Source of the DNA: an uncultured Anaerolineales bacterium
Lineage (GTDB): Bacteria; Chloroflexota; Anaerolineae; Anaerolineales; UBA6663
Length of the DNA stretch: 64,000 nucleotides
Reading direction: 5' to 3'
Assembly: GCA_964480865.1 (NCBI GenBank)
Contig: CAYZRP010000001.1
Coordinates: 22,096-86,095, forward strand
The notes under the pieces were generated by a model, which worked only from the letters and a program-made list of their open reading frames with translations, ran no database searches and had not been told where the DNA came from. Positions 21,127-45,429 of the stretch are shown piece by piece. The first letter of the stretch is position 1. Each line of letters opens with the position of its first letter. A program made the position numbers and the translations under genes.

Positions 21127-21383
21127 TTGGCTCTCATTGTCTCGGGCCCAAGATCCCTTGCTCTTCGATCGACGCGCAGGCACTGGCTCAGAGTGCCACA
21201 GTGTGCGTGACGCAGACCGCCTTCTATCGGGCCGATCGACGTCGGTCAGCCAGACCCATGCGATCGTCAACAGATTGCACGCACACAACCTATGCCCCAG
21301 ACCATACCTGAAGGATTGGATCGGCGGCGACCTCGGCAGAGAATGGCTGGCCGTCGCCAACCGGCGGAGTGCGTGAGACGCGG

Positions 21384-26696: not shown

Positions 26697-28766
26697 CTAC
26701 CGGACAGACACGTGCGAAAACGCGCAGTGACCGCCCGGGCCCACCGCGAGCCCGATCGCACCTGTGAGGTAAGCGTCATCCCGGTCCGTCCACTGCAGCT
26801 CGGCTTGATCATCGATGGACACGCGCACGGTCGGGCCGGAGACCTGTATGCGCAAGGAATACGAACGCCCATGGCTCCAGGCGAACGGCCTCTGAGCAAC
26901 CGCGTGATAGCCGCCGGCGTTCTTGAGGATGCCCAGTGTCCCGGCTGCAATGAGGCCCACGGCATATGAGCGGCGTGCCCCCTGGACCCGCACCAGGCCG
27001 ACATGCTGATCGCCCACCTGCGGTTGTAGGACGACCTGAAGCGTCAGGTCGCGCCAGTCGGGGTCGCCCAGATAGGTCTCACTCCAGCCCGGGCCGCTTC
27101 CATGGTAGGCGCCGTCGGCCAGCCGCCAGAAGCCGCGTAAGAACGTCCAACCGCTGATGGCGCCGTACTCGGGTCGTTCGCGCGAGAAGTCTGTCGAGAA
27201 CGACGGCGAGCCAGACCAATCCACGTGATCCAGAAGCAAAGGCCCGCTCCACGCTTCGCCGGTGTTGCGCAGCGTCAGGCCCACCTCGGTCAGCAGGACG
27301 TTGTCGAGCGTCGGGACCTGAAACGACACGGTCTGCCAGAGCCCGGGCGTCAGCCGCTCGCCAGCGACCGGATGGTCGCGGTCGGCAAACGCGTCGTGGA
27401 CGTACAGCGCGGCGTGAAGATCAGGCGGCGCGTTCAGCGGGACCCTGACCCGCGCCGTCACCGTTTGTCCGGGATAGATCTTGGGCGAGAAGCTTGCGCC
27501 GTAGTAATTGGCGCTCAACTCTTTCGGCCGATACAACGTTCGCACAGAGAGGCGGGCCTCGCCCTTTTTCTTCAAGTCGCGGATCGTGGCCTGCAGCGCC
27601 CCGCGGCCTACGGCGTCCTCGGCAGGCACACGGCGCACATCAAGGACCTCGGCCAGACGCGCCTGGGCCTTGAAGCCCTGCAGCGAGCCAGGGTAGTCGA
27701 AGTGATAGCGCGGCAGGGCGGGCGGCTCAGGCGCACCGACGATCCGGGCGCCGACGCGGGCCAGGGCATCGGCACAGGCCGGGATGCTCCAGAGGTTGCG
27801 GCTGCCGGCCAGGCTCGCCGCGACCAGCTCGTCGTTCATCGCCGCGCGCCAGTGAGACCCGATCCCGTCCAGGCCAACAGCCGTGCCCAAAATCGCGCCC
27901 ACGTTTCCAGCATTACAGTCGGTGTCCCAGCCGGCGTTTGTCGCGATCCGAATGCCGCGCGCGAAATCACCGCCGCTGTAGAGCAAGGCCAGCGCCACCA
28001 CGCCCGCGTTGGGGATGACGTGCACGACCCCGCCGTAGCGGTCATAGCCGAACCCGGCGGTCAGCATCGCATATGCCGAACGCCAGTCGTCCGGCGCTCC
28101 ACGATGGTGCGCAACCACAGCGTTGACGACGCGCGCATACGTGCTTGTGGCCGGGATCAGGGCGAGGCCGGCCTCGATCAGGGCGGCCGGATCAGGCGTG
28201 TCGAACGCGCGGCTGACCATGCCCGCGATGAAGCGCGCGCCCAATACGGCCTCACCATCGTGCGTCACGCGACTGGCGCGCTCGGCAAGGTCGGCCGCGA
28301 TCTCCGGACGCCCGGGAGCCACCAGGCCGAAGAGGTCGCTGAAGATCTGGCCGCCGATTTGCTCGGCGAGTGTCTGACCGTTGAGAGCCATCGATCCGCT
28401 CAGCGGCGCGCGGATGCCCGCGGCCAGGTTCGCGTAGGCGGTGTGCTCGGTCGAGACGCCATAGCCGCCCCACCAGAACGTGCCACGCCCATCGGCGATT
28501 TCGTTGAGCAGCGTCTCGCCGAATTGCTCGGACGTGACGGCCGCGCCATGTCGCTCGAGGGCACGCAGGAGCACCAGCGGCACCGAGGTGTCGTCGTCGG
28601 GCTTGAAGATCGTCCCAGGCGGCAGCGGCAGGAAATCCACGACCTCACCGAGGTTGGCCGCGATCTCGGCCGCCGTCCAGTTCTCCACCGGAGCACCGAG
28701 CCGCACGCCGATACACTTGCCGAGCCACCCGGCGTAGACACTGTCGCGATAGTTGAAGGAAAGCAT
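26697..28766 (-). CDS. ADP-ribosylglycohydrolase-family domain fused to a beta-sandwich and a LamG/ConA-like (DUF1080-like) C-terminal domain
   Basis: The N-terminal 330 aa or so carry PDDDTSVPLV and GWDTDCNAGNVGAILGTAVG (ARH dimetal motifs). The C-terminal 340 aa or so are beta-rich and end WTFLRGFWRLADGAYHG...YSLRIQVSGPTVRVSIDD...GAIGLAV, which is jelly-roll lectin-like. Confidence 0.8.
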   Translation of the reverse strand: MLSFNYRDSVYAGWLGKCIGVRLGAPVENWTAAEIAANLGEVVDFLPLPPGTIFKPDDDTSVPLVLLRALERHGAAVTSEQFGETLLNEIADGRGTFWWGGYGVSTEHTAYANLAAGIRAPLSGSMALNGQTLAEQIGGQIFSDLFGLVAPGRPEIAADLAERASRVTHDGEAVLGARFIAGMVSRAFDTPDPAALIEAGLALIPATSTYARVVNAVVAHHRGAPDDWRSAYAMLTAGFGYDRYGGVVHVIPNAGVVALALLYSGGDFARGIRIATNAGWDTDCNAGNVGAILGTAVGLDGIGSHWRAAMNDELVAASLAGSRNLWSIPACADALARVGARIVGAPEPPALPRYHFDYPGSLQGFKAQARLAEVLDVRRVPAEDAVGRGALQATIRDLKKKGEARLSVRTLYRPKELSANYYGASFSPKIYPGQTVTARVRVPLNAPPDLHAALYVHDAFADRDHPVAGERLTPGLWQTVSFQVPTLDNVLLTEVGLTLRNTGEAWSGPLLLDHVDWSGSPSFSTDFSRERPEYGAISGWTFLRGFWRLADGAYHGSGPGWSETYLGDPDWRDLTLQVVLQPQVGDQHVGLVRVQGARRSYAVGLIAAGTLGILKNAGGYHAVAQRPFAWSHGRSYSLRIQVSGPTVRVSIDDQAELQWTDRDDAYLTGAIGLAVGPGGHCAFSHVSVR

Positions 28767-28917
28767 CGTCAGAGGTTGTCCCTATAGGGTCGCTCACGAA
28801 CGGCAGACGGCTGGCCGCGGACCTCGACTGGCAGAGGCGCGAGTTGTGTCAGGCGCCAACGCCCAGGCGTCTTCGGTCCGTGGTTCGAACTCAACAGTCC
28901 CCTCAGCGTAGCGACTG

Positions 28918-29958
28918 TCATGAAGCGCCTGCCAGGGCGGCTGCGATCGCCGACAGCCGCACGTCTTTCACGACGGGCAGGCACAGACCGCGGCAGACGT
29001 CCAATTGCGCGCGCCACGAAGGGCTGAAAGGCGCTGAGCCCTGGGCGGCTCCGCACAGCGCTCCCACAAGCGCGGGCAGCGAGTCGGCGGATTTCGGGAT
29101 CGCCAACGCGGCCAGGATGGACGACTGTACATCGCCGCTGCAGCGTTCGGTTAGGGCAAAGGCCGCCGGAAGGGTCTCGGGCGCTGCATTGCCGTAGGAA
29201 TAGACGGTGTTGATCAGGCGCAGGCGGAGCGCCAGGATCAGGTCGGCCACCCCGGTGGTCTCGGCCAGACACGCCTGCGCGACGTCTTCGCCGCGCGTGA
29301 TCCAGCTGTCGGCGGGGAACTCGGCCCGGCCGAGCGACAACGCCTCACCGATCGGGGATCCGTCGGCCAACGCCGCGATGGCTGCGCCCATGGCCCGCGC
29401 GGCATAGACCCCATCTTCTGCGTTCGTGACGGAAGCATCCGCCGCAGCGACCCGGGCGGCACGGGCCGGTTCACCGGCGAAGCGCAGGCCGATCGACACC
29501 GCCCGGCATGCCGCCGAGTCGTCGTAGTGCTGGGGGTTGTCGTTGCCGGTCGCTGGCGGTTCGAGGCCGCGGGCCAGATTGTCGAGCGCGGCACGCTCCG
29601 AGAAGCCGGTGAGCACTTCGCCGTCGAGTGGCAGGATCCGCTCGCGCCAGGCCTGAGCGAAGTCTGCCGCTGTGGGCTCACCCGCATGTGCGAGCAACGT
29701 CTGGGCCGCGAAGACCGCGTACTCGGTGTCATCTGTCGGGAAGGGCGCCAGCGTCTCGGGCGCGATCCGGTGTGTGAAGGGCAGAGTCAGGCGGATGACC
29801 CGTCGTTGGGCCAACTCCTGGTTGGTGCGCCACAGAAAGTCGCGGCGTTTGGCCGGAAACTGAAACGTTCGGTGGAAGTCCGCCGGAAAACTCAGGGCGT
29901 CGCCGTAAGCCAGGCCCAGCAGCGCACCATAAGCGCGGTCAGCACGGGTGAGAGTCAT
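28918..29958 (-). CDS. ADP-ribosylglycohydrolase-family protein (divergent C-terminal metal motif)
   Basis: ATG at 29958 follows aagga. GALLGLAYGDALSFP and PTDDTEYAVF are present. The usual G-x-D-x-D-T motif reads PKSADSLPALVGALCGA. Confidence 0.75.
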   Translation of the reverse strand: MTLTRADRAYGALLGLAYGDALSFPADFHRTFQFPAKRRDFLWRTNQELAQRRVIRLTLPFTHRIAPETLAPFPTDDTEYAVFAAQTLLAHAGEPTAADFAQAWRERILPLDGEVLTGFSERAALDNLARGLEPPATGNDNPQHYDDSAACRAVSIGLRFAGEPARAARVAAADASVTNAEDGVYAARAMGAAIAALADGSPIGEALSLGRAEFPADSWITRGEDVAQACLAETTGVADLILALRLRLINTVYSYGNAAPETLPAAFALTERCSGDVQSSILAALAIPKSADSLPALVGALCGAAQGSAPFSPSWRAQLDVCRGLCLPVVKDVRLSAIAAALAGAS

Positions 29959-29972
29959 GAGGTCATGATCCT

Positions 29973-30953
29973 TCAATCGGTCAGATGCAACGTCGGGCCC
30001 AGATAGCGCAACGCGGCAACGAAGCCTGGAGTCCACACGTCCCATCCGTGCCCGCCATCGAGCACGCGCAGCTCAGCCCTGACGTTTGGGACGCGAGCGA
30101 GCCGGTTGTACGCCAGGTGCGCCTCCATGTCGATGTCGTGCAGCGCGTCCTCGGGGTTCGGGTTCTTGTACTCGTCGTCGCCGACGGCGATGAAGATGCG
30201 AACCGGTTGTCCACGCGTCGCGAAGTCGGCCAACAGCGCCGGGTAATTGAGGCGCTGGTAGATCGCGTTGACGAAGCGTTGATCAGCTTCGCCAAACGCC
30301 CCGAACTCGCGTGTGCTCGAGTCGGCCGGTGGCAGCGGCGTGTACACTGCCGGGCTGAGGACGATCGCGGCGGAGAACATCTCGGGGTATGCCAGCGCGT
30401 AGCGCAGCGCGCCATAGCCGCCCATCGAGTAGCCCCCGACGACACGGCCGGCCCGATCGGCCTGAACGGCGAAGTTCTCTTCGACGTGCGGGATCAGTTC
30501 GGTCAGCAACGCGGTCTCGACCTGCGCCCCAGGTGACTCGCCGCCGGTGTAGGCCGAGTCGACGTAGTAGCCGGCGCGCTCGCTCGACGGCGCATCGGGC
30601 ATCACGGCCACGACCGGTGGAATGACGCCTTCGGCGATGAGGGCGTCGAGCTCGGGCCTGACGCGCGCCCAGCTGGCCAGGTTGTCGCCGCGGCCGTGGA
30701 GCAGATACAGCACGGGGTATCGCAGGTTTGCCGCGGGATAGCCGACCGGCAGATAGACGGCATAGCGCAACGGCCGACCCAGCGTGGCCGAGTCGAAGGC
30801 GTGCTCTTCGAGCGAGCCTTCAGGGAACGGTGTCGGTGTCGGGGTCATGGTCACGTCGCTGTCATCGATCGGCGCGGGCGGCGCGGCGCAGGCCCCGACC
30901 AGCGTCAGGAGCACCGCAACCCTCAACAGCCCACGCGTGCGCGAAATCCTCAT
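29973..30953 (-). CDS. Exported esterase lipoprotein (PF00756-type 'putative esterase' / CE1-like alpha/beta hydrolase)
   Basis: Signal peptide plus lipobox (LLTLVGAC). YPVLYLLHGRGDN and the nucleophile elbow VGGYSMGGYGAL are present. The start overlaps the citF stop (ATGA at 30950-30953). Confidence 0.8.
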   Translation of the reverse strand: MRISRTRGLLRVAVLLTLVGACAAPPAPIDDSDVTMTPTPTPFPEGSLEEHAFDSATLGRPLRYAVYLPVGYPAANLRYPVLYLLHGRGDNLASWARVRPELDALIAEGVIPPVVAVMPDAPSSERAGYYVDSAYTGGESPGAQVETALLTELIPHVEENFAVQADRAGRVVGGYSMGGYGALRYALAYPEMFSAAIVLSPAVYTPLPPADSSTREFGAFGEADQRFVNAIYQRLNYPALLADFATRGQPVRIFIAVGDDEYKNPNPEDALHDIDMEAHLAYNRLARVPNVRAELRVLDGGHGWDVWTPGFVAALRYLGPTLHLTD

Positions 30954-32506
30954 GGCACCCGCCGAACGCTGTCGATCAAAGATCCATCGACCCAGGTCAC
31001 GGCCGCGATGATCTCGTCATCGAGGCGGGGCAGCGCCGGCGGTCCACCGCAGATCGAGTCCACCTCAGCCTTGATCTCGCCTAACGTTCGCAGCGGCAGA
31101 GCGGTGCCGCGCACAGCCTCGAGCAGATCGGGCCGTCGCGGGTTGATGGCGATGCCGCGCTCGGTGACGACGACGTCGATCAACTCGCCGGGTCCGCACA
31201 ACGTGGTCACGCGATCGCGCAAGACGGGGACGCGATCGCGGAACGACGGCACCGTCAGGATCGTGCACTTCGCGAACAAGGCATCCTGCCAGCCGCCGAT
31301 GCCGTGGAGCAGCCAGCCGTCTGAATGCGTGACGACGTTGCCATTGAAGTCGAGATCGACCTCGGTCGCCCCCAGCACGGCGAAATCGACAAGCGAGGCA
31401 AAGTTGCCTTTGCCGTGATAGTTGTAGCTGGTGAACGGGCTGGTCGCCAGATGTCGGTCCGGGTGCTCACGCATCGAGCGCACGCCGTCGAGATCGAAGG
31501 CCTGGCCGTCGAGCAGGTAATCGGCCAGACCCGCTTCGAGCAACTCGACCAGGATGCGCGTCGTGCCGCCGCGGATGAATCGGGCCGGGATGCGCTCGGT
31601 GCGCATGTGCTCGGCCACGAAGGCCGTGAAGGCCAGGCTTGTGCCGCCGGCGCCGGCCTGGAACGAGAACCCGGGCGTCACCAGCCCGGCCTCGCGCACG
31701 AAACGCGCGGCGTACTCGGCGATGAGCAGCCGATCGGGTGAGCGCGTCAATTGAGTGGTGCCCGAGACGATGCGGGTCGGATCGCCGACCTGCTCGACGA
31801 CGACGACCTGATCGACGCGGTTGCCAGCGATGTGCCACGGCGAACACGGGAACGGCACGAGCGTGTCGGTGACCACGATGACGTGGTCGGCGAACTCCGA
31901 GTCGGCCAGCGCGAAGCCGAGCGGCCCGCACGCGGCCGGCCCATGCACGCCGCTGGCATTGCCAAATGAGTCGGCGGCCGGGGCCGCGATCACGGCGATG
32001 TCGACGTGCACGTCCCCGTCCTGCAGGGCTCGATAGCGGCCGCCGTGTGACCGCAGCACGCCCAGCCCGCGCATGCGACCGCGCGAGGCGTAACGCCCGA
32101 GCGGTCCGTTGAGGCTGCCCTCGATGTGATGGATCAGGCCGCCCTCGAGGTGCTCGATCAACGGCTCATGGCACGCGAACGTCGCCGACGGGAACCAGAC
32201 CAGGTCCTTCACGCCGAGCTCGGCCGCCGCTGCGAAGACCTGGGCCATCACGCGGTCGCCGTCGCGGAAGTGGTGGTGCGAACCGATCGTCATGCCATCG
32301 CGCAGCCCGGCGCGGCGCAGCGCTTCGACAAGATTCGGCGCGCGCTTGTCGCCATCCGGCGGGAATTCGGCGCAGGATCGGATCGGGGGGCCGGCGTGAC
32401 GCCCCCGCGGACGATCGATCCCGAGGCCCTGATACGGGGCGACCGCTTTGCCGTTGACGACCTCGGGCACCAGCCGCCCGGCGGCGTTCTCGATGAGCCG
32501 GGTCAT
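30950..32506 (-). CDS. citF: Citrate lyase alpha subunit-like (citrate CoA-transferase family)
   Basis: Start at 32506 gives MTRLIENAAGRLVPE. IGSHHHFRDGD and the C-terminal LGATEVDLDFNGNVVTHSDGWLLHGIGGWQDA...TLCGPGELIDVVVTERGIAINP are CitF hallmarks. 518 aa. Confidence 0.85.
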   Translation of the reverse strand: MTRLIENAAGRLVPEVVNGKAVAPYQGLGIDRPRGRHAGPPIRSCAEFPPDGDKRAPNLVEALRRAGLRDGMTIGSHHHFRDGDRVMAQVFAAAAELGVKDLVWFPSATFACHEPLIEHLEGGLIHHIEGSLNGPLGRYASRGRMRGLGVLRSHGGRYRALQDGDVHVDIAVIAAPAADSFGNASGVHGPAACGPLGFALADSEFADHVIVVTDTLVPFPCSPWHIAGNRVDQVVVVEQVGDPTRIVSGTTQLTRSPDRLLIAEYAARFVREAGLVTPGFSFQAGAGGTSLAFTAFVAEHMRTERIPARFIRGGTTRILVELLEAGLADYLLDGQAFDLDGVRSMREHPDRHLATSPFTSYNYHGKGNFASLVDFAVLGATEVDLDFNGNVVTHSDGWLLHGIGGWQDALFAKCTILTVPSFRDRVPVLRDRVTTLCGPGELIDVVVTERGIAINPRRPDLLEAVRGTALPLRTLGEIKAEVDSICGGPPALPRLDDEIIAAVTWVDGSLIDSVRRVP

Positions 32507-33660
32507 GGCGCCTCCGCGAGTTTCAGCACGCGCCGTGCGCGTTCGACCACGGGTGGATCGATCATGCGGCCATCCACCACCGCGACCCCTCGGCCGGCCG
32601 CCTGGGCCTCTTCGAGCGCCGAGACGATCCGACGCGCCTGCTCGATCACGGCAGGCGCCGGCCGGAAGCCGGCGTGAGCGGCCCTGATCTGGCGCGGATG
32701 CAGGCAGGCGACACCGTCGAAGCCGAAGTCGCGGGCCTGCGCCGCGAAGCGCTCCATCCCAGCGAGGTCGTCGACCTCGGCAAACACCGACGCCAGCGGC
32801 TGGACGCCCGCGGCGCGGGCCGCGTTGACGATCTGGCTGCGCGCCCACAGGCTCTCGACGCCTTCGGGCGTTCGCACGGCGCCCAGGTCCGCGGTGTAGT
32901 CTTCAAGGCCGAGACCCAGGGCCGCGACCCGATCGGATGCGCTCGCGATCGACAGGGCATTGAAAACCCCGCGCGCGCTTTCGATGATTGGGATCAGGTG
33001 GATCGACGCAAACCCCTCAAGACAGTGGGCGGCTGCCGCGACATCTTCCGCGCCTTCGACCTTGGGCAGGACAAACCCCTGCACGCCGTGTGGCGCGAGC
33101 AGGGCGATGTCGTCGAGCCCGGCGGGCAGGGCGTTCACGCGCACAAGCACCTCGGCGTCGTGAAAGTCCACGGCGCGCAGGGCGTTGCGCACCAGCAAAC
33201 GGGCTGAGTCCTTTTCGTCGGTCGGCACCGAGTCCTCGAGATCCAGGATCACGGCATCCGGTCGATGCAGCCCGGCGTTGACGAAGAACTTGGGCGTGTC
33301 GCCCGGAAGATAGAGCCGCGAACGGCGTAGCCGATTGCGCGCGGAGGGCGTCCGTTCTACAGTTCGCGGCGGTAGGGCCTCGGTGATCGTGTCAGGATGG
33401 AGCCGTTTGACGGCGGCCTCGAGGCGCGCCATCAACACGAAGGGCAGGGCGCCGCTGTCATCGACACGCACGTCCAGATCGTCTGCGCCCAGGCGCTCGA
33501 GGGTCGCGTGCGCCAGCCGCGCGATCTCGGCGCCGTAGAGCGCGGCGACCCGACTCTCGACGGTCAGTTCGGGCAGTTGTTCTGGGCGCTCCCTCACGCT
33601 CACCGCGATGCCGCAATCCGAGCGGACGTCGGGCCCATAGTGTCCGGCGAACGCCTTCAT
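32503..33660 (-). CDS. citE: Fusion of citrate lyase acyl-carrier (gamma, CitD-like) and beta (CitE-like, HpcH/HpaI-CitE family) subunits
   Basis: N-terminus MKAFAGHYGPDVRSDCGIAVSV...VRVDDSGALPFVLMARLEAAVKRL is CitD-like with Ser at position 14. RSRLYLPGDTPKFFVNAGLHRPDAVILDLEDSV and the remainder are CitE-like. ATGA overlaps at both ends. Confidence 0.8.
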   Translation of the reverse strand: MKAFAGHYGPDVRSDCGIAVSVRERPEQLPELTVESRVAALYGAEIARLAHATLERLGADDLDVRVDDSGALPFVLMARLEAAVKRLHPDTITEALPPRTVERTPSARNRLRRSRLYLPGDTPKFFVNAGLHRPDAVILDLEDSVPTDEKDSARLLVRNALRAVDFHDAEVLVRVNALPAGLDDIALLAPHGVQGFVLPKVEGAEDVAAAAHCLEGFASIHLIPIIESARGVFNALSIASASDRVAALGLGLEDYTADLGAVRTPEGVESLWARSQIVNAARAAGVQPLASVFAEVDDLAGMERFAAQARDFGFDGVACLHPRQIRAAHAGFRPAPAVIEQARRIVSALEEAQAAGRGVAVVDGRMIDPPVVERARRVLKLAEAP

Positions 33661-34655
33661 GCCGTCGCTCCCGCCAGGGCACGATCGACGAGGCGCTCGG
33701 CCACGACCTCGATCTGCTGCCCGGCGACGAAGCCGATGCACTTGCCTGCCGACACGGCCGCGCGCCGGGCCCAGTCAACGGGGATCGAGTCAAGACCGCC
33801 GTACGCGCCGGCCAGGCTGCCAACGATGGCGCCGATGGTGTCGGCGTCGCGGCCGAGGCTGATCCCGGCCGGCACCGCGCGTTCGAAAACGCCGTGCGCG
33901 GCCAGGAAGGCGCCGAAGGCGAGCGGCACGGCCTCGGTCACGAGGTCGGCCCACGGCCACCAATCGACCACCAGTTTTTCGGCCAACGTCGCCAGTGCGC
34001 CGTCGAGATCGTCGGGCAGCGCAGCGACGGCGTCCGCTGCGCGCTGAAGCGCCCGCGCGGTCCACGTGTCGGTCGGCACCGCCGCGATCGCGGCCGAAAG
34101 CATCTCGTCCGGCTTCGCGCCGACCATGGCGACAGCGATCGCGGCGGCCACCGCCTGCGCGGCGTGGATGCCGTCGCGGCCGTTTGAGACGGAGCCGAGG
34201 GTGGTTGCCAGCCGTGCGGCCAGCGCCGGATCACCGGCGGCGACGATGCCGGCCGGGCAGATCGCCATGGCCACGCCGTCGCTCCACATCTGGTGGTTGA
34301 ACGCGCCCGATTGCGGGGCTGAGAGCCCGGCCGCGAGGTTGCGGGTCGAGCACACATCACTGAAGCCGCCGGGCCGGTACGCGCGGCCAGGGCCAAGCAG
34401 TTTGTCGCGCCACTCGGCCTCGACCTGTTCGAGCGTGATGGTGTGACCGTGAGCGATCAACAGATGGGCGTTGAACAAAGTGAAGTCGGTGTCGTCGGTG
34501 CCCGACGTAGCATCGGTCAGGAAGCCCGTGATCCGACCGTGCGTCGCGCGGATCTCGGCCGACGTCCGGCCTTCGACGGGTGCGCCCATCGCATCGCCGA
34601 TGGCGACCCCGACCAGCGCGCCGTGCGCGCGGCGGATCAGTTCACTGCGGTTCAT
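33657..34655 (-). CDS. ADP-ribosylglycohydrolase-family protein
   Basis: GALVGVAIGDAMGAPVEG, SGTDDTDFTLF and SLGRDADTIGAIVGSLAGAYGGLDSIPVDW are all present. Start ATG at 34655 (ATGA overlap with the Kelch stop) or 34661. Confidence 0.8.
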   Translation of the reverse strand: MNRSELIRRAHGALVGVAIGDAMGAPVEGRTSAEIRATHGRITGFLTDATSGTDDTDFTLFNAHLLIAHGHTITLEQVEAEWRDKLLGPGRAYRPGGFSDVCSTRNLAAGLSAPQSGAFNHQMWSDGVAMAICPAGIVAAGDPALAARLATTLGSVSNGRDGIHAAQAVAAAIAVAMVGAKPDEMLSAAIAAVPTDTWTARALQRAADAVAALPDDLDGALATLAEKLVVDWWPWADLVTEAVPLAFGAFLAAHGVFERAVPAGISLGRDADTIGAIVGSLAGAYGGLDSIPVDWARRAAVSAGKCIGFVAGQQIEVVAERLVDRALAGATA

Positions 34656-35620
34656 CGACATTGTGTCTCGATCCATTCTGCGGCCCCGCCGATCCCTGTC
34701 GGTTCCTCGCCGCCAAGCGTCAACACGCGTCCATCGAATTTCGCAGCGGCCAGCCAGGCCCGCGGCCGGGCCAGCGGCGGCGGGTGGCAGACCGAGCCCG
34801 TCCGGACATCGACCCTTTCGACGAGGCCGAGGTAGCCGCTCGAGTCGAAACCGCCGACGATCAGGAGGTCGCCCTCCCACTCGAGCGCTGCGGCCCAGGT
34901 GCGCGCCTCGATCGACCACTCGAGCGTCGACCAGGCATGGCCTCCTACCTCGAGCCGCTCGACGACGGCCGAGTAACCGCCCTCGGTCGAGTATCCGCCA
35001 ATGGCGTACAGACTTTCCGCGATCGCCACGAGGGTCAGCCCACGCCGCGGAACGTTCAGCCGCGGCAGCTTCTCCCAGGCGTCCTCCTGCGGATCGTAAG
35101 CCTCGACCACGTCGCTGTAGCCGTCGAGGTCCGCGTCACTGGCGCCGTCGAACCCACCGGCCACCACGATCCGCTGGTCCCATACCGCGACGCCCGGCTC
35201 GCGACGCGGCGTCGGCAAATGCGTGACAGTAGTCCAGACCGCGTCGCCGCTGCCCAGCGCCTCGACCTCCGAGACCAGGCCGACTGTCGCGCTCCATCCT
35301 CCGACGACCCAGAGGCGATCCGCCAGGCTGACCAGGCCGTGCTGGCTGCGTGCCACGTTGAGCATCGGCCCCGAAACCCAGCGGTCGCCGTCGAGCCGTT
35401 CGACCGTGTCGAGTTGCGTCGTCGTGCCGCTCCAGCCGCCGACCGCGTACGGCTGCCCGGCCAGGACGCCGGCCGCCAGAGCCCGTCGTGGCGCGATCTC
35501 GGGCGGCGCCGCGCTGGCCGCGCAGGCGGAGAGGAAGAGCGCGAATGCGCAGACGAAGGACGAATGATGAAAGACGAAGGTTGAACGGCCGTTCAACTTG
35601 CGTCTCTCGTCATTGGTCAT
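34652..35620 (-). CDS. Exported Kelch-repeat beta-propeller lipoprotein
   Basis: Six Kelch-like units (YAVGGW..., LWVVGGW..., IVVAGGF..., LYAIGGY..., LLIVGGF..., VLTLGGE...). Signal peptide with FALFLSAC lipobox. Start ambiguous (ATG 35620, ATG 35638 or TTG 35596) because the 5' end lies inside a hairpin repeat. Confidence 0.75.
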   Translation of the reverse strand: MTNDERRKLNGRSTFVFHHSSFVCAFALFLSACAASAAPPEIAPRRALAAGVLAGQPYAVGGWSGTTTQLDTVERLDGDRWVSGPMLNVARSQHGLVSLADRLWVVGGWSATVGLVSEVEALGSGDAVWTTVTHLPTPRREPGVAVWDQRIVVAGGFDGASDADLDGYSDVVEAYDPQEDAWEKLPRLNVPRRGLTLVAIAESLYAIGGYSTEGGYSAVVERLEVGGHAWSTLEWSIEARTWAAALEWEGDLLIVGGFDSSGYLGLVERVDVRTGSVCHPPPLARPRAWLAAAKFDGRVLTLGGEEPTGIGGAAEWIETQCR

Positions 35621-35626
35621 TCGTCG
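35551..35626. repeat. Heptamer-array hairpin element A (GACGAAN units)
   Basis: Left arm gacgaag/gacgaat/gatgaaa/gacgaag (35552-35579). Central perfect 16-bp palindrome ttgaacggccgttcaa (35581-35596). Right arm ttgcgtc/tctcgtc/attggtc/attcgtc (35598-35625). The arms are imperfectly complementary. Shares the 13-mer tcgtcattggtca with element B. Confidence 0.6.
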
Positions 35627-36410
35627 CTCCCATTCCACCGATGAACTCCAACACGGCCCGTCGAAAGCTCGGATGGCGTGCAGCGCTGTCGTGCGTGGCG
35701 CCCGGTATGACGACCAGCTTGAGCTGAGTCATCCATCCCTGGAGCTTCACGAAATCCTTGTGGTATGGATCCTCCGACCCGACGACGCCGAGGGTCGGCA
35801 CGGCCACGGGGCGCATCTGCACTTCGGACACGACCTGCGCCGGGTTCGAGCGCCGCAGGGCCGCCAGTGCGAGCGGATCCTGGCCGAGCAGCGCGGCTGT
35901 CGAGTTGATGCGCACCTCGTCATCGCTCAGACGGGGATCGATCCGCCGCATCTGTGTCGTCAGCCTCCCGAGTTCGAGCTCCGCCGCCTCGCGGTCCACA
36001 CGCGCTTGATCCTCCGTCGTCCAACCCAGTCGGCCGGCCGCGCCGCCGAGCGTCGCGGACAACAGGCGCTCGGGCCTCACGGTCAGCAGATGGGCCAGGA
36101 TGTGCGCACCCATCGAGTAGCCGACGACGTGCGCGCGTTCAAGGCCGAGATGATCGAGCAGTCGGATGACGTCGAGGCCCATCTCGGCCCCATACTGAGA
36201 CGGGTCATGGGGCCTGTCGCTGCCGCCATGACCACGGCAATCGAAAGCGATCACGTGGTGGCGATCCGCCACTGCCGCGGCCAGGCCGTTGGTGAACCAA
36301 TTCTCGAGCCGTCCGGTGAAACCGTGAACAAGGACCACGGGCCGGCCTTCACCGATCGTGACGAAACGAATGCGGATCCCGTTCGAATTGAAAAAACGCT
36401 CGCCTTCCAC
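35610..36410 (-). CDS. Alpha/beta-fold hydrolase
   Basis: RPVVLVHGFTGRLENW, nucleophile elbow VVGYSMGAHIL, C-terminal His region IPGATHDSAARHP. GTG start at 36410 (agga 8 nt upstream) is preferred over TTG at 36458. Confidence 0.8.
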   Translation of the reverse strand: MEGERFFNSNGIRIRFVTIGEGRPVVLVHGFTGRLENWFTNGLAAAVADRHHVIAFDCRGHGGSDRPHDPSQYGAEMGLDVIRLLDHLGLERAHVVGYSMGAHILAHLLTVRPERLLSATLGGAAGRLGWTTEDQARVDREAAELELGRLTTQMRRIDPRLSDDEVRINSTAALLGQDPLALAALRRSNPAQVVSEVQMRPVAVPTLGVVGSEDPYHKDFVKLQGWMTQLKLVVIPGATHDSAARHPSFRRAVLEFIGGMGATNDQ

Positions 36411-36431
36411 TGTGACGGTCCTGGACGTGGT

Positions 36432-36462
36432 GTGGCCACAAGGGCGGGGTGGCCACAAGGGC
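36432..36462. repeat. Tandem 14-bp direct repeat in the permease/hydrolase intergenic spacer
   Basis: gtggccacaagggc occurs at 36432-36445 and again at 36449-36462, with a 3-nt spacer. Each copy contains the palindrome GTGGCCAC. An 8-bp hairpin is possible: gggtggcc (36447-36454) with ggccaccc (36460-36467). Confidence 0.4.
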
Positions 36463-36467
36463 CACCC

Positions 36468-37343
36468 CTACCCTTTGATGCCGACGCTGGCGATGCCGCC
36501 GATCAGGTACTTCTGGGCGAAGAAGTACAGCACCGCCGGCGGGACGACGCCGATCAGCGAACCGGCCATGATCAGGTTCCACTGGATGTTGTAACGACCC
36601 TTGAGCATGTTGAGCCCCAGTTGGATCGTGTAGTCGTCGTACTTGCTGATGTAGATCAGGGGGTCAAGGAACTCATTCCATGTCCACAGGAAGGTCAGCA
36701 CGCCCGTCACCACCATCGGCGGAACGCACAGCGGCAGGATGATCTTGATGAACACGTCCCAGGTCGAGGCGCCGTCGATCCGGGCCGCCTCGTCGAGGTC
36801 GCGCGGGATCGTCATGATGTACTGGCGCATCAGAAAGATGAAGAACGCGTTGCCGAAAAACGAAGGCACGATCAGGGGCAGGTAACTGCCCACCCAGCCC
36901 AACCACTGGAAGACGACGAAACGCGGCAGGAGCATGATCTGGCCCGGGATCATGAGCGTCGCCAGGAGCAGCATGAACAGCATGTTGCGCCCCGGGAAGC
37001 GCAGACGGGCGAAGGCGAAGGCCACAAGCGTGCACGAGAAGAGATGGCCGATGATGTTCATCACCGCGATGAACAGCGAGTTGAGCCCGAACCGCACAAA
37101 CGGGATCTGGGTCAGGACGTCGGTGAAGTTCTGCCAGCGGATCGGATCTGGCCAGTAGACCGGTGGCCACGCAAAGATCTGACCGGGCTCCTTGAAGGCG
37201 GTCAGCGCCATCCAACCGATGGGGATGCCGACCATGACCAGGGCGAGCCCGGTGAGGGTCAGGAAGACCAGGATGGAGTTCAGGTGCCGCAGGGCGGCCA
37301 GGGCAGGGCGACCAGCCGGCTTCGGGACGTCGAGCACGCTCAT
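36468..37343 (-). CDS. Carbohydrate ABC transporter permease (MalG-like)
   Basis: EAA loop DLDEAARIDGASTWDVFIKIILPLCVP. Start at 37343 forms an ATGA overlap with the upstream permease stop. Confidence 0.85.
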   Translation of the reverse strand: MSVLDVPKPAGRPALAALRHLNSILVFLTLTGLALVMVGIPIGWMALTAFKEPGQIFAWPPVYWPDPIRWQNFTDVLTQIPFVRFGLNSLFIAVMNIIGHLFSCTLVAFAFARLRFPGRNMLFMLLLATLMIPGQIMLLPRFVVFQWLGWVGSYLPLIVPSFFGNAFFIFLMRQYIMTIPRDLDEAARIDGASTWDVFIKIILPLCVPPMVVTGVLTFLWTWNEFLDPLIYISKYDDYTIQLGLNMLKGRYNIQWNLIMAGSLIGVVPPAVLYFFAQKYLIGGIASVGIKG

Positions 37344-38257
37344 GCGTCGTTGCCCTTTCCTTCGGACTCGTAGTAGACCCACAGCGGAGAACTGCGGAAG
37401 ACCAGGGCCGTGAACCCCATGATGATGACGGCCATGATCCAGGCCAGCGCTGAGGCATAGCCCATATCGAAGTCCTCAAAGGCCGTCCGGAACATGTAGA
37501 ACATGTAGAAGAGCGTCGAGCGCGCCGGGCCGCCGCCGGTGATGACGTACACGGCCGTGAACACCTGAAACGCGTCGATGAGCTCCATCACCAGCTGGAA
37601 CAGGATCGTGGGCGAAAGCATCGGCAGCGTGACGTTCCAGAACTTCGCCCACAGCCCGGCGCCGTCGATCTCGGCCGCCTCGTACAGGTGTGGCGGGATG
37701 TTTTGCAGCCCGGCTAGGTAGATGATGGCGCCGCCGCCGACCCGCCACAGGCTCATCAACGCCACGCTCGGCAGGGACCACTCCGGGCTCCAGAACCAGT
37801 TCGGCCCCTGGATCCCGACCATCGCCAGCAGCGTGTTGGCCACGCCATACTCGGGGTTGAGCAGCCACATCCACATCAACGCCACCGAGACGCCCGACAG
37901 CACGACCGGCAGATAGAACAGCGTGCGGAAGATCCGCATGCCCGGCACCGGATTGTTGAGCAGCAGCGACAGCCCCAGCCCGGCCGCCAGGTTGAGCGGC
38001 AGCGAGATCGCCACGTACGTGAACGTGACGCGCATCGATTGCCAGAAGTCCGGATCCTTTGTGAAGATCCGGACGTAGTTGTCGAGGCCGACCCACTTCG
38101 GCGGCACCGTGATCTGCCAGTCGGTGAAACTCAGGCCAAGCGAGGCGATAAACGGCCCGAGCGTGAACACCAGGAATCCGATCAGCCACGGGCTGATGCC
38201 GATGTAGCCTTCGATGGCTTCGCGCGTCGCGGGGCGGAGGTTGAGGCGTTCTGGCAT
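37340..38257 (-). CDS. Carbohydrate ABC transporter permease (MalF-like)
   Basis: EAA loop HLYEAAEIDGAGLWAKFWNVTLPMLSP. Six TM segments. RBS gaggt upstream of ATG 38257. Confidence 0.85.
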   Translation of the reverse strand: MPERLNLRPATREAIEGYIGISPWLIGFLVFTLGPFIASLGLSFTDWQITVPPKWVGLDNYVRIFTKDPDFWQSMRVTFTYVAISLPLNLAAGLGLSLLLNNPVPGMRIFRTLFYLPVVLSGVSVALMWMWLLNPEYGVANTLLAMVGIQGPNWFWSPEWSLPSVALMSLWRVGGGAIIYLAGLQNIPPHLYEAAEIDGAGLWAKFWNVTLPMLSPTILFQLVMELIDAFQVFTAVYVITGGGPARSTLFYMFYMFRTAFEDFDMGYASALAWIMAVIIMGFTALVFRSSPLWVYYESEGKGNDA

Positions 38258-38270
38258 GCTTACCTCAGGG

Positions 38271-38426
38271 CGACGAACGACGAATGACGAACGACGAAGG
38301 TCAGGTGGCCGTGATGACAGGCCTTATGCCGGCCGAGAGTGGCACGCGGCTCGTGCGCTACTCTCGGGCCTGGGCACAACCTTCGTCATTCGTCCTTCGT
38401 CATTCGTCTGCTTTCGTCATTGGTCA
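38271..38426. repeat. Heptamer-array hairpin element B (YGACGAA units) between the SBP and permease genes
   Basis: Left arm cgacgaa/cgacgaa/tgacgaa/cgacgaa/gg (38271-38300). Right arm cc/ttcgtca/ttcgtcc/ttcgtca/ttcgtct (38380-38409), plus ttcgtca/ttggtca extending to 38426. The arms pair at 26 of 29 positions. The 79-nt loop contains an inner hairpin (gccgagagt...actctcgggc). Confidence 0.65.
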
Positions 38427-38435
38427 GCCGACCAG

Positions 38436-39779
38436 CTAGCTCAACCCCAGCGCCTTGCGCTCAGTGTCGACGATCTCCTGAGCGGCGGCCACAGCCGCGT
38501 CGAGCTCGCCCTTGATCTTGTCACGCTCGATGTCGCCCAGATAGATCCTGTCGTACAGGTCCTGGTTCAGGCGCGTGACCTTGCTGAAGTACGGGAAGCG
38601 CCCCGAGAACTCCCAGACCTGCGGGGTCTTGAGGATCTCGAAGAAGAACTTGACGCGCGCGTCATCCTTGGCCGGGTGCTCGGGCCACAACGCCGGGATG
38701 TTGGCCGTGTAGCCCTTGTTCTGGGCCTGCAGGAAGCGCTGGCCGTCCGTGCCTGTCATCCACTTCAGCCACTCCCAGGCCGCGTCCTTCTTCTGGCTGG
38801 CCTTGGGGATGCCCAGCTGGAGCGTCCAGCCGTTTGTGATGACTTCCTGGCCTTCGACCTTCGGATTATGCACAAGGCCGAACTTGACGCCTGAGCCATC
38901 GACGCGCTGGAACTGGCCGTTGTTGAGGCCGGCGAAGCCGAGGCGGCCGGTCATGAACAGATCGATCGGGCCGGTGCCCTCGGTGCTGAGTGCCTGGAAC
39001 TCCGAGAAGGTCGGCACCGCGCCGGAGCGTGCAAGGTCCCACATGAACTCGAAGGCCGCCACGGTCTCGGGCCCGTTCATGTAGCCGTCGACGACCTTGC
39101 CCTCGTTGTCGAAGGGGCGGGCGCCGAACGCGAAGAACTCCGCGCGCCAGACGCGCGTGGGCATCGCGGCGCCGAAGATCTTCTTGTCGCGATCGGTGAG
39201 GGCGACGGCGTCTTCCATCCACTGCTGCATCGTATAGCCCCACTCGGGGGCCTTCAGGCCCTTCTCACCGAACAGGGTCTCGTTGTAGAAGTACATGGTC
39301 GCGCCGACGCCGATCGGCATGCCGATGATCTGCTCGCCGTAGCGGCAGCGCGAGTCGAAGTGCACCTTCGAGTACATGCCGAGGTCGACCTTGTCGCGAT
39401 CGATGTAGGTGCGAAGATCCTCGGCCTGCGGGAACCAGTCCGCGCTCCAGAAAGTGGTGACGTCGGGCACGCCTGAGCCGGTGCCGAGCACCGTCGTCAT
39501 CTTCTCCGAGAAGCCGTCGTCGGGCAGGAAGGTGGCGTTGACCTTGACGGTCTTGCCAGCCTCGCTGGCCTGGAAGGCGTCGAGCCAGGCGCGCTGCGTG
39601 GGTTCGTCGCCGACGTCGGCGCCTCCGACCGTCCACCAATCGATCTCGGTGACCGGGACTGCAGTGGCCGGGACCGCTGTGGGGGTGGCCGCAGGTGTGC
39701 AGGCACCCAGGGCGAGGCCTGCGGTGGTGTAGCCCGCATATTGCAGGAAGGCACGGCGGGACAGGGTGTTGAGTTTCAT
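38436..39779 (-). CDS. Extracellular solute-binding lipoprotein, sugar ABC transporter (CUT1 type)
   Basis: ATG at 39779 follows ggaggaaag. MKLNTLSRRAFLQYAGYTTAGLALGAC gives a Tat-like RR motif plus lipobox. About 447 aa, family 1 SBP size. Confidence 0.85.
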   Translation of the reverse strand: MKLNTLSRRAFLQYAGYTTAGLALGACTPAATPTAVPATAVPVTEIDWWTVGGADVGDEPTQRAWLDAFQASEAGKTVKVNATFLPDDGFSEKMTTVLGTGSGVPDVTTFWSADWFPQAEDLRTYIDRDKVDLGMYSKVHFDSRCRYGEQIIGMPIGVGATMYFYNETLFGEKGLKAPEWGYTMQQWMEDAVALTDRDKKIFGAAMPTRVWRAEFFAFGARPFDNEGKVVDGYMNGPETVAAFEFMWDLARSGAVPTFSEFQALSTEGTGPIDLFMTGRLGFAGLNNGQFQRVDGSGVKFGLVHNPKVEGQEVITNGWTLQLGIPKASQKKDAAWEWLKWMTGTDGQRFLQAQNKGYTANIPALWPEHPAKDDARVKFFFEILKTPQVWEFSGRFPYFSKVTRLNQDLYDRIYLGDIERDKIKGELDAAVAAAQEIVDTERKALGLS

Positions 39780-39878
39780 GGGCAGCTTTCCTCCTCGGAC
39801 TGTCGAACGATGATTGGAGCAGTTGGGCATCAAGGCCAGCGATAGGTCCTGTCGACGGTCACCTCCTCTGAATGACGT

Positions 39879-40862
39879 TCACCGGATCAGGTCGGCCAAC
39901 TGGCTGGCTAACCGGCCCACATCCTCGTGGGCCGCGAAGCGCAAACACACGCCCGCAGGTTGGCGCACACGCGCGATCCATTCCGCAGGGATCACGCCGA
40001 CTCCCTGACGGGCGCCGGCGAGCGCGCCCACGACGGCCCCGATCGTGTCGGCGTCGCGGCCGAAGTTGCAGGCCCAGAACATCCCGCGCCTGAAGTCGCC
40101 GGCGGTGAGCCGGAACACGGCCAGGGCCTGCGGGATCGCTTCCGCGCTGACCGAGTGCACGGGCGTCCACAGGTCGTCGTGCAGGCGTTCCCAGGCGGCT
40201 TCGATCGAACCCGCTGCGGCGCAGATGGCGTCGGCGCGATCGAGCGCGCGACAGAGCCAGCTGTCAGTGGGGATAGGGCGTCGGGCAGCGTCGAGGATTT
40301 CGTCGGGCGTGCCGTCAACCATGGCGATGGACACCGCGGCTGCGACGGCCTGAGCTGCCCAGATCCCGTCGCCGTCATGGCTGACCTGGGCCTCGATGCC
40401 GGCGAGGGCGATCGCGCGCTCGGGGTCGCCGGCGCAAAGAATGCCGATCGGCGCGATGCGCATCGCGGCGCCGTCATCGTCGTTCATCACGTTGTCGCGG
40501 CCCGAGAGCGGCGGGAGGATGCCGCGCTGCAGGTTAGCCACCGCGCCGTACAGGGGCCGGCCACCCCGTTCGAAAAGGCCGCCCTGATCCAGGATCAAGC
40601 GCCGCCAGGTGTCGACCACGGCTTCCAGGGTCAGGTCGCCGCCGCAGTCGATCAGAGTCCGGGCGGTGAGCAGCGCGAACTCGGTGTCGTCGGTGCTGCG
40701 CGCCGCGCCGTTCAGCGACGTTGCCAGGCCGTAGCGCTTACGGTGTTCGTCGTTGCGCCCGAGATCGCCGAGGGCATCGCCCACCGCCAGCCCGAGCAGG
40801 GCGCCCTGCGCCTTTGTGGAGCGCAGCGCGGGATCGTCGATGAGCGCCTGTCGCGAGATCAT
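39879..40862 (-). CDS. ADP-ribosylglycohydrolase-family protein (first gene of the operon)
   Basis: ATG at 40862 follows ggagga. GALLGLAVGDALGDLG, STDDTEFALL and NFGRDADTIGAVVGALAGARQGVGVIPAEW are present. Confidence 0.8.
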   Translation of the reverse strand: MISRQALIDDPALRSTKAQGALLGLAVGDALGDLGRNDEHRKRYGLATSLNGAARSTDDTEFALLTARTLIDCGGDLTLEAVVDTWRRLILDQGGLFERGGRPLYGAVANLQRGILPPLSGRDNVMNDDDGAAMRIAPIGILCAGDPERAIALAGIEAQVSHDGDGIWAAQAVAAAVSIAMVDGTPDEILDAARRPIPTDSWLCRALDRADAICAAAGSIEAAWERLHDDLWTPVHSVSAEAIPQALAVFRLTAGDFRRGMFWACNFGRDADTIGAVVGALAGARQGVGVIPAEWIARVRQPAGVCLRFAAHEDVGRLASQLADLIR

Positions 40863-40890
40863 GGCTATCCTCCAGAGGTACGTCCGGATC

Positions 40891-40908
40891 TGCGGGAACG
40901 TTCCCACA
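40891..40908. promoter_or_regulatory. LacI-family operator (cre/PurR-like AACGTT core) upstream of the ARH/ABC operon
   Basis: tgcgggaacgttcccaca has a perfect 12-bp palindromic core gggaacgttccc. Located 29-46 nt upstream of ATG 40862. It is the exact reverse complement of the site at 41983-42000. Confidence 0.6.
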
Positions 40909-41978: not shown

Positions 41979-41982
41979 GGAT

Positions 41983-42000
41983 GTGGGAACGTTCCCGCAA
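41983..42000. promoter_or_regulatory. Second copy of the LacI-family operator, at the regulator's own 5' end
   Basis: tgtgggaacgttcccgca ends only 5 nt upstream of the LacI ATG (41978). It faces the divergent FAD-oxidoreductase gene at 42255. Confidence 0.6.
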
Positions 42001-45408: not shown

Positions 45409-45429
45409 GGTCTCCAGCGATGTCGTGCG

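Follow-up and report, generated by a model that had tools for sequence, protein, structure and literature searches.

Why should a bacterium encode four paralogues of the ADP-ribosylglycohydrolase (ARH) family, whose members are textbook erasers of ADP-ribosylation, in one operon with a citrate-lyase-type enzyme and a sugar importer? The locus that raises this question lies at 40862–26697 on the minus strand of a 64,000 nt stretch (the window; G+C about 65%) of contig CAYZRP010000001.1, from an uncultured Anaerolineales bacterium. The original prediction, made from the sequence alone, had described twelve same-strand genes forming a catabolic system for a glycosylated or ribosylated organic-acid substrate. 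Open reading frame (ORF) calls and Pfam searches bear out the twelve genes, and the comparative evidence agrees with the proposed function and narrows it to ribose plus a citrate-type acid. The answer favoured here, with moderate confidence, is that the operon serves the substrate-inducible catabolism of a conjugate in which ribose is joined to a hydroxy-tricarboxylic acid of the citrate type; this conjugate would be imported and deribosylated by ARH-fold hydrolases before the acid is cleaved.

In order of transcription, the operon encodes ARH1 (40862–39879; Pfam PF03747, 171 bits), a CUT1-type solute-binding lipoprotein (SBP; 39833–38436; SBP_bac_1, 79 bits), ABC permeases 1 and 2 (38257–37340 and 37343–36468; both BPD_transp_1), an alpha/beta hydrolase (36458–35610; Abhydrolase_1, 84 bits), a Kelch beta-propeller lipoprotein (35638–34652; Kelch_1, 118 bits), ARH2 (34655–33657; PF03747, 170 bits), a fusion of CitD, an acyl carrier protein (ACP), with the HpcH_HpaI protein CitE (33660–32503; PF06857, 52 bits, and HpcH_HpaI, 165 bits), CitF, an alpha subunit of the acyl-ACP:acid transferase type (32506–30950; CitF, 421 bits), a CE1-type esterase lipoprotein (30953–29973; PF00756, 107 bits), ARH3 (about 29958–28918; PF03747, 137 bits) and ARH4, an ARH domain with about 380 extra C-terminal residues (28766–26697; PF03747, 189 bits). 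The family assignments, made originally by eye, all hold in these profile searches, and all twelve genes have a high third-position G+C. Five junctions (37340–37343, 34652–34655, 33657–33660, 32503–32506 and 30950–30953) had been proposed to be ATGA overlaps, and each reads ATGA on the minus strand; one joins the two permease genes, and the 4 nt overlaps are unbroken through ARH2, CitD-CitE, CitF and the esterase. The remaining intergenic distances range from −29 to +178 nt. From its sequence, the locus appears to be a genuine 12-gene operon, predicted to be repressor-controlled and conserved from Chloroflexi to rhizobia.

The original prediction would have been refuted by a lack of conserved co-occurrence in related genomes; instead, the ARH/importer/LacI module was found linked to citrate-cleaving enzymes in many loci from several phyla. 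The module of a LacI regulator, a CUT1 importer and ARH paralogues recurs in Chloroflexi, in activated-sludge and marine metagenomes, in Rhizobiaceae and in Deinococcus. Clusters of the window type have the order LacI-ARH1-SBP-two permeases-Kelch-ARH2-CitDE-CitF-ARH3, with or without the esterase and ARH4, and occur in Caldilinea sp. CFX5 (locus L001), in Anaerolineales metagenome-assembled genomes (MAGs) or metagenome contigs (L005/L093, L088, L090, L094), and in L085 and L087. The closest long relative of the window is L005 (CitF 82% identical). In two Bacteroidota loci (L065, L079) an ARH gene is directly upstream of CitDE-CitF. ARH1 orthologues in related loci are 61–80% identical, ARH2 orthologues are abundant in Anaerolineae and Caldilineae, and the Kelch gene is conserved among the Chloroflexi clusters. 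Accessory genes differ from one cluster to another; they include an alpha/beta hydrolase (also present in L088 and L089), an esterase, a GMC oxidoreductase, DUF885 and AtuA.

The ARH/importer/LacI module was found beside five non-orthologous modules for citrate activation and cleavage: fused CitD-CitE with CitF (the window type); unfused CitD, CitE and CitF (L119); a CoA-transferase III with a CitE-like lyase (L151, L155 and Sinorhizobium sp. B11, L170); a CoA-transferase III with a citryl-CoA lyase (L096); and a citryl-CoA synthetase/lyase resembling ATP-citrate lyase (ACL; L086, L173, L175). Locus L119, from activated sludge (51% G+C, only 27–35% identical), has two ARH genes, one of the long ARH4 type, then separate CitD, CitE and CitF genes and then permeases, and its CitF passes the TIGR01584 model (520 bits, cutoff 501). 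The three clusters with a CitE-like lyase, one from a TARA ocean contig (L155) and one on a megaplasmid of Sinorhizobium sp. B11, share the order LacI-two permeases-SBP-ARH (about 400 aa)-ARH4 type-MalK/UgpC-CoA-transferase III-CitE-like lyase, and at 148 bits the lyase of the rhizobial cluster is no more than CitE-like. In L096 the genes ARH2-ARH3-CoA-transferase III precede one for a 261-aa protein that scores above the cutoff of the citryl-CoA lyase model NF004869 (259 bits, cutoff 212). The ACL-like clusters encode succinyl-CoA-ligase-like beta and alpha subunits, with a citryl-CoA-lyase domain (225 bits, cutoff 212) forming part of the alpha subunit as a fusion; the lyase domains of L086 and L173 pass the citryl-CoA-lyase cutoffs, the ACL-like unit overlaps the stop codon of the ARH4-type gene in L173 and L175, and its beta subunit in L175 gives weak Citrate_bind and Citrate_synth_N matches. 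Because five unrelated cleavage solutions are attached to the same module, a citrate-type acid is suggested as a product of that module; judged from these gene contents, the repeated swap, the central finding here, would be hard to explain unless the imported compound yields such an acid.

Two further variants were seen among the related clusters. Some ARH clusters are without any acid-cleaving gene (L172, L109); a low-GC version (46%; L109, 39–10536, and L108) has the order LacI-two permeases-SBP followed by four consecutive ARH paralogues and an AtuA-family protein, and no citrate-cleaving gene was found on its contig. In the Caldilinea-type clusters L001 (12985–14544) and L087 (15069–16628) a GMC oxidoreductase follows ARH3, at the position of ARH4 in the window, and scores 383 bits (cutoff 387) against the mycofactocin dehydrogenase MftG.

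The CitDE-CitF pair of the window appears to be citrate-lyase-like but divergent, because all three parts miss their NCBIfam equivalog cutoffs: CitF scores 462 bits against TIGR01584 (cutoff 501), CitE 247 bits against TIGR01588 (cutoff 443) and CitD 43 bits against TIGR01608 (cutoff 63.5). The prosthetic-group site of the ACP, Ser14 in the motif R-S-D-C, is kept in 99% of 67 CitD-CitE fusions; in classical CitD this serine carries the ribosyl-dephospho-CoA group. Homologues of CitF at 63–88% identity occur in at least 555 genomes, spread over Chloroflexota, Bacteroidota, Ignavibacteriota, Acidobacteriota, Gemmatimonadota, KSB1, WOR-3 and others, and the fused CitD-CitE gene adjoins CitF almost everywhere among these loci. 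About 75 of 84 CitDE-CitF loci have no nearby ARH gene, and the presence of the pair alone says little about this operon. Among the loci whose neighbours were classified, no citC, citX or citG was noticed beside the pair. In most phyla the pair belongs to a conserved gene string, seen in L003/L004, L007, L010, L016 and about 30 more loci, of Iso_dh, a protein with an HD domain, aconitase, in some cases PrpD/MmgE or another aconitase, then CitDE and CitF. In the stand-alone CitD of L119 (13292–13576), an arginine (ERGD) aligns where serine (ESGD/RSDC) is expected, which may reflect a shifted alignment, an error in the sequence or a genuine loss.

The second product of the pathway looks like ribose, judging from gene linkage in the relatives, where ribokinase is an alternative or additional partner of the ARH module. 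In L005, a ribokinase gene two positions downstream of ARH4 encodes a protein scoring 336 bits against TIGR02152 (cutoff 300). Agrobacterium tumefaciens HAMBI 105 (L168) and Deinococcus aetherius (L169) carry the module LacI-two permeases-SBP-ARH-ARH4 type together with an annotated ribokinase, which follows a UgpC ATPase gene at the module end in the former and lies between two ARH genes in the latter, where no ATPase is annotated. In L165, a ribokinase gene and a CoA-transferase gene adjoin each other in the same cluster. For the kinases of Agrobacterium and L165 the scores (279 and 236 bits) fall short of the ribokinase cutoff. In Bacteroidetes, ARH proteins are reported among the variable enzymes of ribose-utilisation loci, with substrates unknown (bioRxiv 10.1101/574913).

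An unlikely alternative is that the operon is catabolic as proposed but that its sugar is not ribose or its acid not (homo)citrate, the substrate being another furanoside or acyl-glycoside, or the acid being citramalate, malate or another 2-hydroxy acid. Such a substrate would suit the sub-cutoff scores of CitD, CitE and CitF, the CitE-like character of the rhizobial lyase, the two kinases below the ribokinase cutoff, and the CBM66-type domain found on ARH4 (see below), a type known for fructofuranose binding (PDB title). It is countered by the proteins that do pass, namely the L005 kinase at the ribokinase equivalog level, the CitF of L119, and the lyase domains of L096, L086 and L173, and by the weak citrate-related matches of the L175 beta subunit.

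The original prediction had placed an 18 bp operator and a LacI-family gene directly upstream of the operon; both were found, along with a second, identical operator. The repressor gene (41978–40968, minus strand) encodes a LacI-type helix-turn-helix (HTH) domain (57 bits) and a Peripla_BP_3 domain (138 bits). The predicted operator O1 (TGTGGGAACGTTCCCGCA, 40891–40908, no strand assigned) is 29 nt upstream of the ARH1 start codon, and O2 (the same 18-mer, 41982–41999, likewise without strand) is 4 nt upstream of the lacI start. Their 12 bp core is a perfect palindrome; the chance expectation for the 18-mer is 0.08 matches per window, and the observed count was reached in none of 100 shuffles. 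The HTH domain, the periplasmic-binding-fold effector domain and the palindromic predicted operator at the promoter have the makeup expected of a repressor/operator unit, and the position of O2 directly before lacI would imply autoregulation. Between lacI and the operon, a terminator-like hairpin (an inverted repeat with 15 nt arms) is followed by the T-run TCTTTTTT (40958–40925, minus strand).

LacI orthologues of 49–62% identity stand at the head of related clusters, and the two-operator layout is kept there, one copy preceding lacI and the other the first structural gene. The exact 18-mer had no match in the compared loci; the motif was recovered only by a relaxed palindrome scan, which found the GGGAACGTTCCC-type palindrome in Chloroflexi loci, the sludge locus L119, Agrobacterium, Sinorhizobium and Nitratireductor. 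The Sinorhizobium operator core (GTGGGAACGTTCCCGC) is the same as that of the window, and a variant (GAGAACGTTCTC) occurs in L173 and L175. Because this type of palindrome recurs with the same layout across phyla, the repressors are likely to be orthologous and probably respond to a common class of effector. A DAO-family FAD oxidoreductase gene (42255–43406, plus strand) is divergent from lacI, with O2 contained in the 276 nt spacer, and might share the LacI regulon; it was not conserved among the related loci inspected.

These observations bear on a further alternative, that the operon is a chance mosaic in which a housekeeping citrate-lyase pair has been inserted into a sugar or riboside uptake and hydrolysis unit with no common substrate. 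CitDE-CitF is a mobile two-gene module seen in many phyla and in contexts resembling the tricarboxylic acid (TCA) cycle, accessory genes vary between clusters, and ARH clusters without an acid-cleaving gene exist. Chance adjacency would not, however, predict that five non-homologous citrate-cleaving routes were recruited to one module in different lineages, and the 4 nt overlaps straight through the CitDE-CitF region and the operator common across phyla also speak against it, so that a mosaic appears distinctly improbable.

The ARH proteins of the operon are predicted to be hydrolases acting in the cytoplasm. Each of the four covers about positions 1–285/287 of the PF03747 profile (cutoff 26.2 bits). 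The motifs compared (T-D-D... and D-x-D-T) are those we take to be the binuclear-metal ligands, as known from the structures of DraG and of the named enzyme ARH3 (not the window paralogue). Both are intact in ARH1 (TDDTE, DADT), and ARH2 has GAPVE, TDDTD and DADT. ARH4 has DDDT and DTDC, which are kept in 23 homologues, out to rhizobial ones. The window ARH3 has TDDT, with SADS replacing the C-terminal DxDT motif, a conservative change, and SADS is kept in 12 orthologues. The nearest named or solved relatives are DraG, Tri1 and the enzyme ARH3, and the sequence relation of the four proteins to these and to MJ1187 is remote (E-values 1e-5 to 1e-11); equivalog models are missed widely (DraG, 55 bits against a cutoff of 337; Tri1, 42 against 490). 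By eye, ARH1 to ARH4 and the alpha/beta hydrolase are without a signal sequence, with the catalytic domain at the N-terminus. Another orthologous group of ARH proteins, about 400 aa long, has members in L096, L119, L173 and the proteobacterial clusters, and none in the window.

The C-terminal part of ARH4 had been called lectin-like, and structure prediction bears this out: it gives two beta-sandwiches that resemble carbohydrate-binding domains, the last being similar to a carbohydrate-binding module (CBM) of the CBM66 type. In the AlphaFold2 model (pLDDT 91.8, pTM 0.92), a predicted ARH domain (residues 1–345) precedes these two domains. By Foldseek, the N-terminal domain has the all-alpha ARH fold (TM-score normalised to the target 0.66–0.79 to MJ1187, DraG, the enzyme ARH3 and a Thermus ARH), the first beta-sandwich resembles CBM22 and lectin-domain folds, and the last superimposes on CBM66 (TM 0.82, rmsd 2.1 Å). 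Homologues of ARH4 number 4388 matches, some of which carry PF06439 (DUF1080) at the position of the C-terminal domain, and full-length homologues occur in Rhizobiaceae and Deinococcus. With its modelled CBM-type modules and no signal peptide, ARH4 fits a cytoplasmic glycosidase acting on an imported oligosaccharide-like molecule.

ARH4-type genes were also seen in two other settings. In a proteobacterial MAG (L174, 7599–22091), a gene for a protein 57% identical to the window ARH4 is found among genes resembling those for a sulfated substrate, namely an SSF transporter, two sulfatases, a TonB-dependent receptor, a PfkB kinase and an FGE-sulfatase domain protein. Enterobacter hormaechei pMB8072_1 (L171, 7960–12419) carries a minimal trio of LacI, ARH4 type and SBP between chiP and glnS; the region is chromosome-like and the replicon is from a clinical Enterobacter.

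The proximity of ARH and citrate-lyase genes invites a different explanation, in which the ARH proteins service the citrate-lyase ACP by removing or editing its prosthetic group, replacing the missing citC/citX/citG logic. The prosthetic group, 2'-(5''-phosphoribosyl)-3'-dephospho-CoA, contains an alpha-1''→2' ribosyl-ribose bond like that of poly(ADP-ribose). The attachment serine is kept on the ACP, citC, citX and citG are not at the locus, ARH genes flank CitDE-CitF with 4 nt overlaps, and the two Bacteroidota loci show only ARH, CitDE and CitF. Yet the same ARH/transporter module is joined elsewhere to a CoA-transferase with a lyase, to a CoA-transferase with a citryl-CoA lyase or to ACL-like enzymes, all of them free of an ACP and its prosthetic group, ribokinase is the sole partner in Agrobacterium and Deinococcus, and most CitDE-CitF loci have no nearby ARH. 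With ACP-free modules replacing CitDEF in the same type of cluster, an action on the ACP was rejected as the principal explanation and is given very little probability. Equally remote is DraG-like regulation, in which the ARH proteins would be de-ADP-ribosylases that switch citrate lyase or transporter proteins: all four do match PF03747 and have DraG, Tri1 and the enzyme ARH3 as closest named or solved relatives, but it was rejected since Pfam finds no ADP-ribosyltransferase partner at the locus, the DraG and Tri1 scores are far under cutoff, the catabolic frame, with three or four paralogues in each cluster, CBM-like domains on ARH4, control by LacI and an importer of the sugar type, fits it poorly, and the ribokinase linkage points to release of free ribose.

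The SBP_bac_1 protein and two BPD_transp_1 permeases constitute a CUT1-type importer. The SBP has, by eye, a Tat motif (SRRAFL) and a lipobox (LALGAC), its likely start being the ATG at 39779, and its matches to solved structures are distant and are to sugar-binding SBPs; like the remote matches of the ARH proteins, they carry no information on the substrate. The original prediction held that the locus is without an ABC ATPase, citC, citX, citG and a citrate carrier, and the searches agree: none of these, nor ribokinase, was found by Pfam among the 12 operon genes or in a non-exhaustive scan of 26 further ORFs of the window, and tblastn of the window with MalK/UgpC-type ATPase and ribokinase gave nothing except a generic 30% ABC match (59770–60411). 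A cognate MalK/MsiK-type ATPase is thus found neither at the locus nor in the window by tblastn; a MalK/UgpC-type ATPase is encoded inside the proteobacterial versions of the cluster.

Two other proteins are likewise predicted lipoproteins, the Kelch protein with the lipobox FLSAC and the esterase with LVGAC (both by eye). The Kelch protein scores 31 bits against a NanM-type model, which is below cutoff. In L173 and L175, an esterase 60–68% identical to that of the window (60% for the esterase half in L175) is fused to a different propeller (SBBP), and because of this the pairing of esterase and propeller appears itself to be conserved. The best named matches of the alpha/beta hydrolase are of the 3-oxoadipate enol-lactonase type (PcaD/PcaDC, 65–71 bits, far below cutoffs), and it is possibly a lactonase or an esterase with the acid moiety as its target.

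From the gene content, the operators, their conservation, the non-orthologous displacement and the predicted fold of ARH4, we infer a substrate and a series of catalytic steps. LacI would sit on the two operators and be released by the conjugate or a breakdown intermediate. Outside the cell, the CE1-type esterase and Kelch propeller might trim or bind an esterified precursor, and the Tat-lipoprotein SBP and two permeases would import the conjugate, the ATPase being provided in trans. Once in the cytoplasm, the conjugate would be attacked by the four ARH-fold paralogues, acting as ribosyl (ribofuranoside) hydrolases and releasing ribose stepwise; ARH4 would hold the glycan part through its two CBM-like domains, and the alpha/beta hydrolase may hydrolyse an ester or lactone. 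CitF and CitD-CitE would then cleave the freed acid, citrate giving acetate and oxaloacetate, or homocitrate giving acetate (or acetyl-CoA) and 2-oxoglutarate. Ribose would pass to a ribokinase; relatives have its gene in the cluster, and in this genome it presumably lies elsewhere.

Several points weigh against this pathway. CitD, CitE and CitF are all below their equivalog cutoffs, and most genomes with CitDE and CitF have them with Iso_dh, HD, aconitase and PrpD/MmgE genes and without ARH; the pair occurs in ARH-free contexts and is therefore a general module that does not fix the acid specificity here. The ACP, with its serine, appears to rely on functions not seen at the locus, and the window is without ribokinase, ABC ATPase and citC/citX/citG in the parts scanned. 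The window ARH3, with its altered motif, may be catalytically altered or a non-catalytic partner, and the roles given to the Kelch protein and esterase are guesses. To our knowledge, ARH-fold enzymes (the characterised enzymes ARH1 and ARH3, DraG and Tri1) are known experimentally only on ADP-ribose derivatives, and no paper describing a ribofuranosidase was found in the literature search.

The literature search found one natural product of exactly the proposed composition. Ribocitrin, from Streptomyces, is an (S)-homocitric acid tririboside, and its biosynthesis is reported as not yet established (PMC12381216, PMC13136089). It is a candidate substrate, being the only natural product of this composition found in the literature search, which gave no report of its degradation. 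The match between three ribosyl bonds and three core ARH paralogues is suggestive, nothing more. The acid is left here as '(homo)citrate'. Citrate is favoured by the replacement modules of citryl-CoA-lyase and ACL type and by the weak Citrate_bind match of L175, whereas ribocitrin contains homocitrate, which counts as a further point against the proposal. We offer only tentatively, as a possibility we doubt more than we believe, the bolder proposal that the ARH-fold proteins here are the first alpha-D-ribofuranosidases, a class of glycosidase of which none has been described, and that the operon and its counterparts in Rhizobiaceae, Deinococcus and marine and sludge bacteria form a dedicated, widespread pathway for eating oligoribosyl-(homo)citrates of the ribocitrin type that actinomycetes secrete, with about one ARH paralogue per ribosyl bond and (homo)citrate lyase acting last.

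The original prediction knew of no characterised pathway joining ARH proteins and CitDEF, and the literature search found none either: no paper was found that connects ARH-family genes with citrate lyase, and searches on ARH with catabolism and an ABC transporter, on ribosyl-citrate and on a fused citrate lyase in Bacteroidetes did not turn up the pathway. The frame, a LacI-controlled catabolic operon with an ABC importer, is ordinary; the implied chemistry and the role of the ARH proteins are without a described counterpart. In glucosylglycerate and mannosylglycerate utilisation, a glycoside of an organic acid is imported and hydrolysed in the cytoplasm, and both halves enter central metabolism. 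By analogy the logic of the window operon would be the same, although those operons use classical glycoside hydrolase families and yield glycerate, whereas here the hydrolases are ARH-fold and the acid would need a C-C lyase.

The citrate-lyase systems of the Klebsiella/E. coli type (citCDEFXG) share CitF-, CitE- and CitD-family proteins and the ACP prosthetic-group serine with the window, but in the window the gamma and beta subunits are fused and score below equivalog level, the accessory genes and citrate carrier are absent from the locus, and the pair lies amid ARH genes and an importer of the sugar type, with LacI as the predicted regulator, and not in a system that responds to citrate. 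The enzymes of two-step citrate cleavage (citryl-CoA synthetase and citryl-CoA lyase) and ATP-citrate lyase, known from the reductive TCA cycle, take the CitDEF position in relatives of this operon (L086, L096, L173 and L175), but there they belong to a LacI/ABC/ARH catabolic cluster and not to an autotrophic pathway, and the window itself uses an ACP-dependent lyase. With the enzymes ARH3, DraG and Tri1, the window proteins share the all-alpha fold (ARH4 N-terminal domain) and binuclear-metal motifs (ARH1, ARH2), and differ in their remote sequences, catabolic context, lack of a transferase partner and the CBM-like domains of ARH4; their predicted substrate is a small imported riboside and not a modified protein.

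The rus loci (Glowacki et al., bioRxiv 10.1101/574913) are nutrient-scavenging loci that contain ARH genes, among their variable enzymes and next to ribokinase; their proposed role is the release of ribose from ribose-containing nutrients of unknown nature. They are SusC/D-type polysaccharide utilisation loci with RusR regulators, whereas the window has a CUT1 ABC importer and LacI; no acid-cleaving module is reported for rus, and no SusC/SusD or ribokinase was found in the window by Pfam and tblastn. The window locus does not have the makeup of a rus locus, and the only idea the two have in common is that ARH proteins free ribose.

Thousands of bacterial ARH homologues are without a known role, the ARH4 type alone accounting for the matches counted above, and this locus and its relatives offer a testable role for many of them, as cytoplasmic ribosyl hydrolases in nutrient catabolism with ribose and a citrate-type acid as products. 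If true, this would be a new route of carbon entry into central metabolism by citrate or homocitrate cleavage, would explain the presence of citrate lyase in aerobic or facultative Chloroflexi without the accessory genes of citrate fermentation, and would give ribocitrin-like natural products their first metabolic context. The hypothesis can be tested directly, since the cluster has carriers in culture, namely Ensifer adhaerens, Sinorhizobium sp. B11 (p1, LVY75_08025–08065), Agrobacterium tumefaciens HAMBI 105 (U0027_RS24300–24335) and Deinococcus aetherius (DAETH_RS18115–18150).

Other gene clusters are present in the window. A second catabolic-looking string (44413–55940, minus strand) comprises genes for an aldo/keto reductase, a homologue of methenyl-H4MPT cyclohydrolase (MCH, PF02289), an FGGY kinase, a xylose-isomerase-like TIM barrel protein, a Pyr_redox_2+BFD+SO_alpha_A3 flavoprotein, a DAO oxidoreductase, a second MCH homologue, an amidohydrolase and a RibD_C protein. 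Two MCH paralogues beside opine-oxidase-like flavoproteins are unusual for a Chloroflexi-type genome. A separate LacI and CUT1 sugar cluster (2812–11297, minus strand) encodes glycosidases of families GH31 and GH4 together with an SBP and one or more permeases; it too is without its own ABC ATPase, which fits a common ATPase encoded elsewhere. At 21369–23552 (plus strand) is a gene for a 727-aa protein with a CopC domain and a C-terminal cytochrome c domain.

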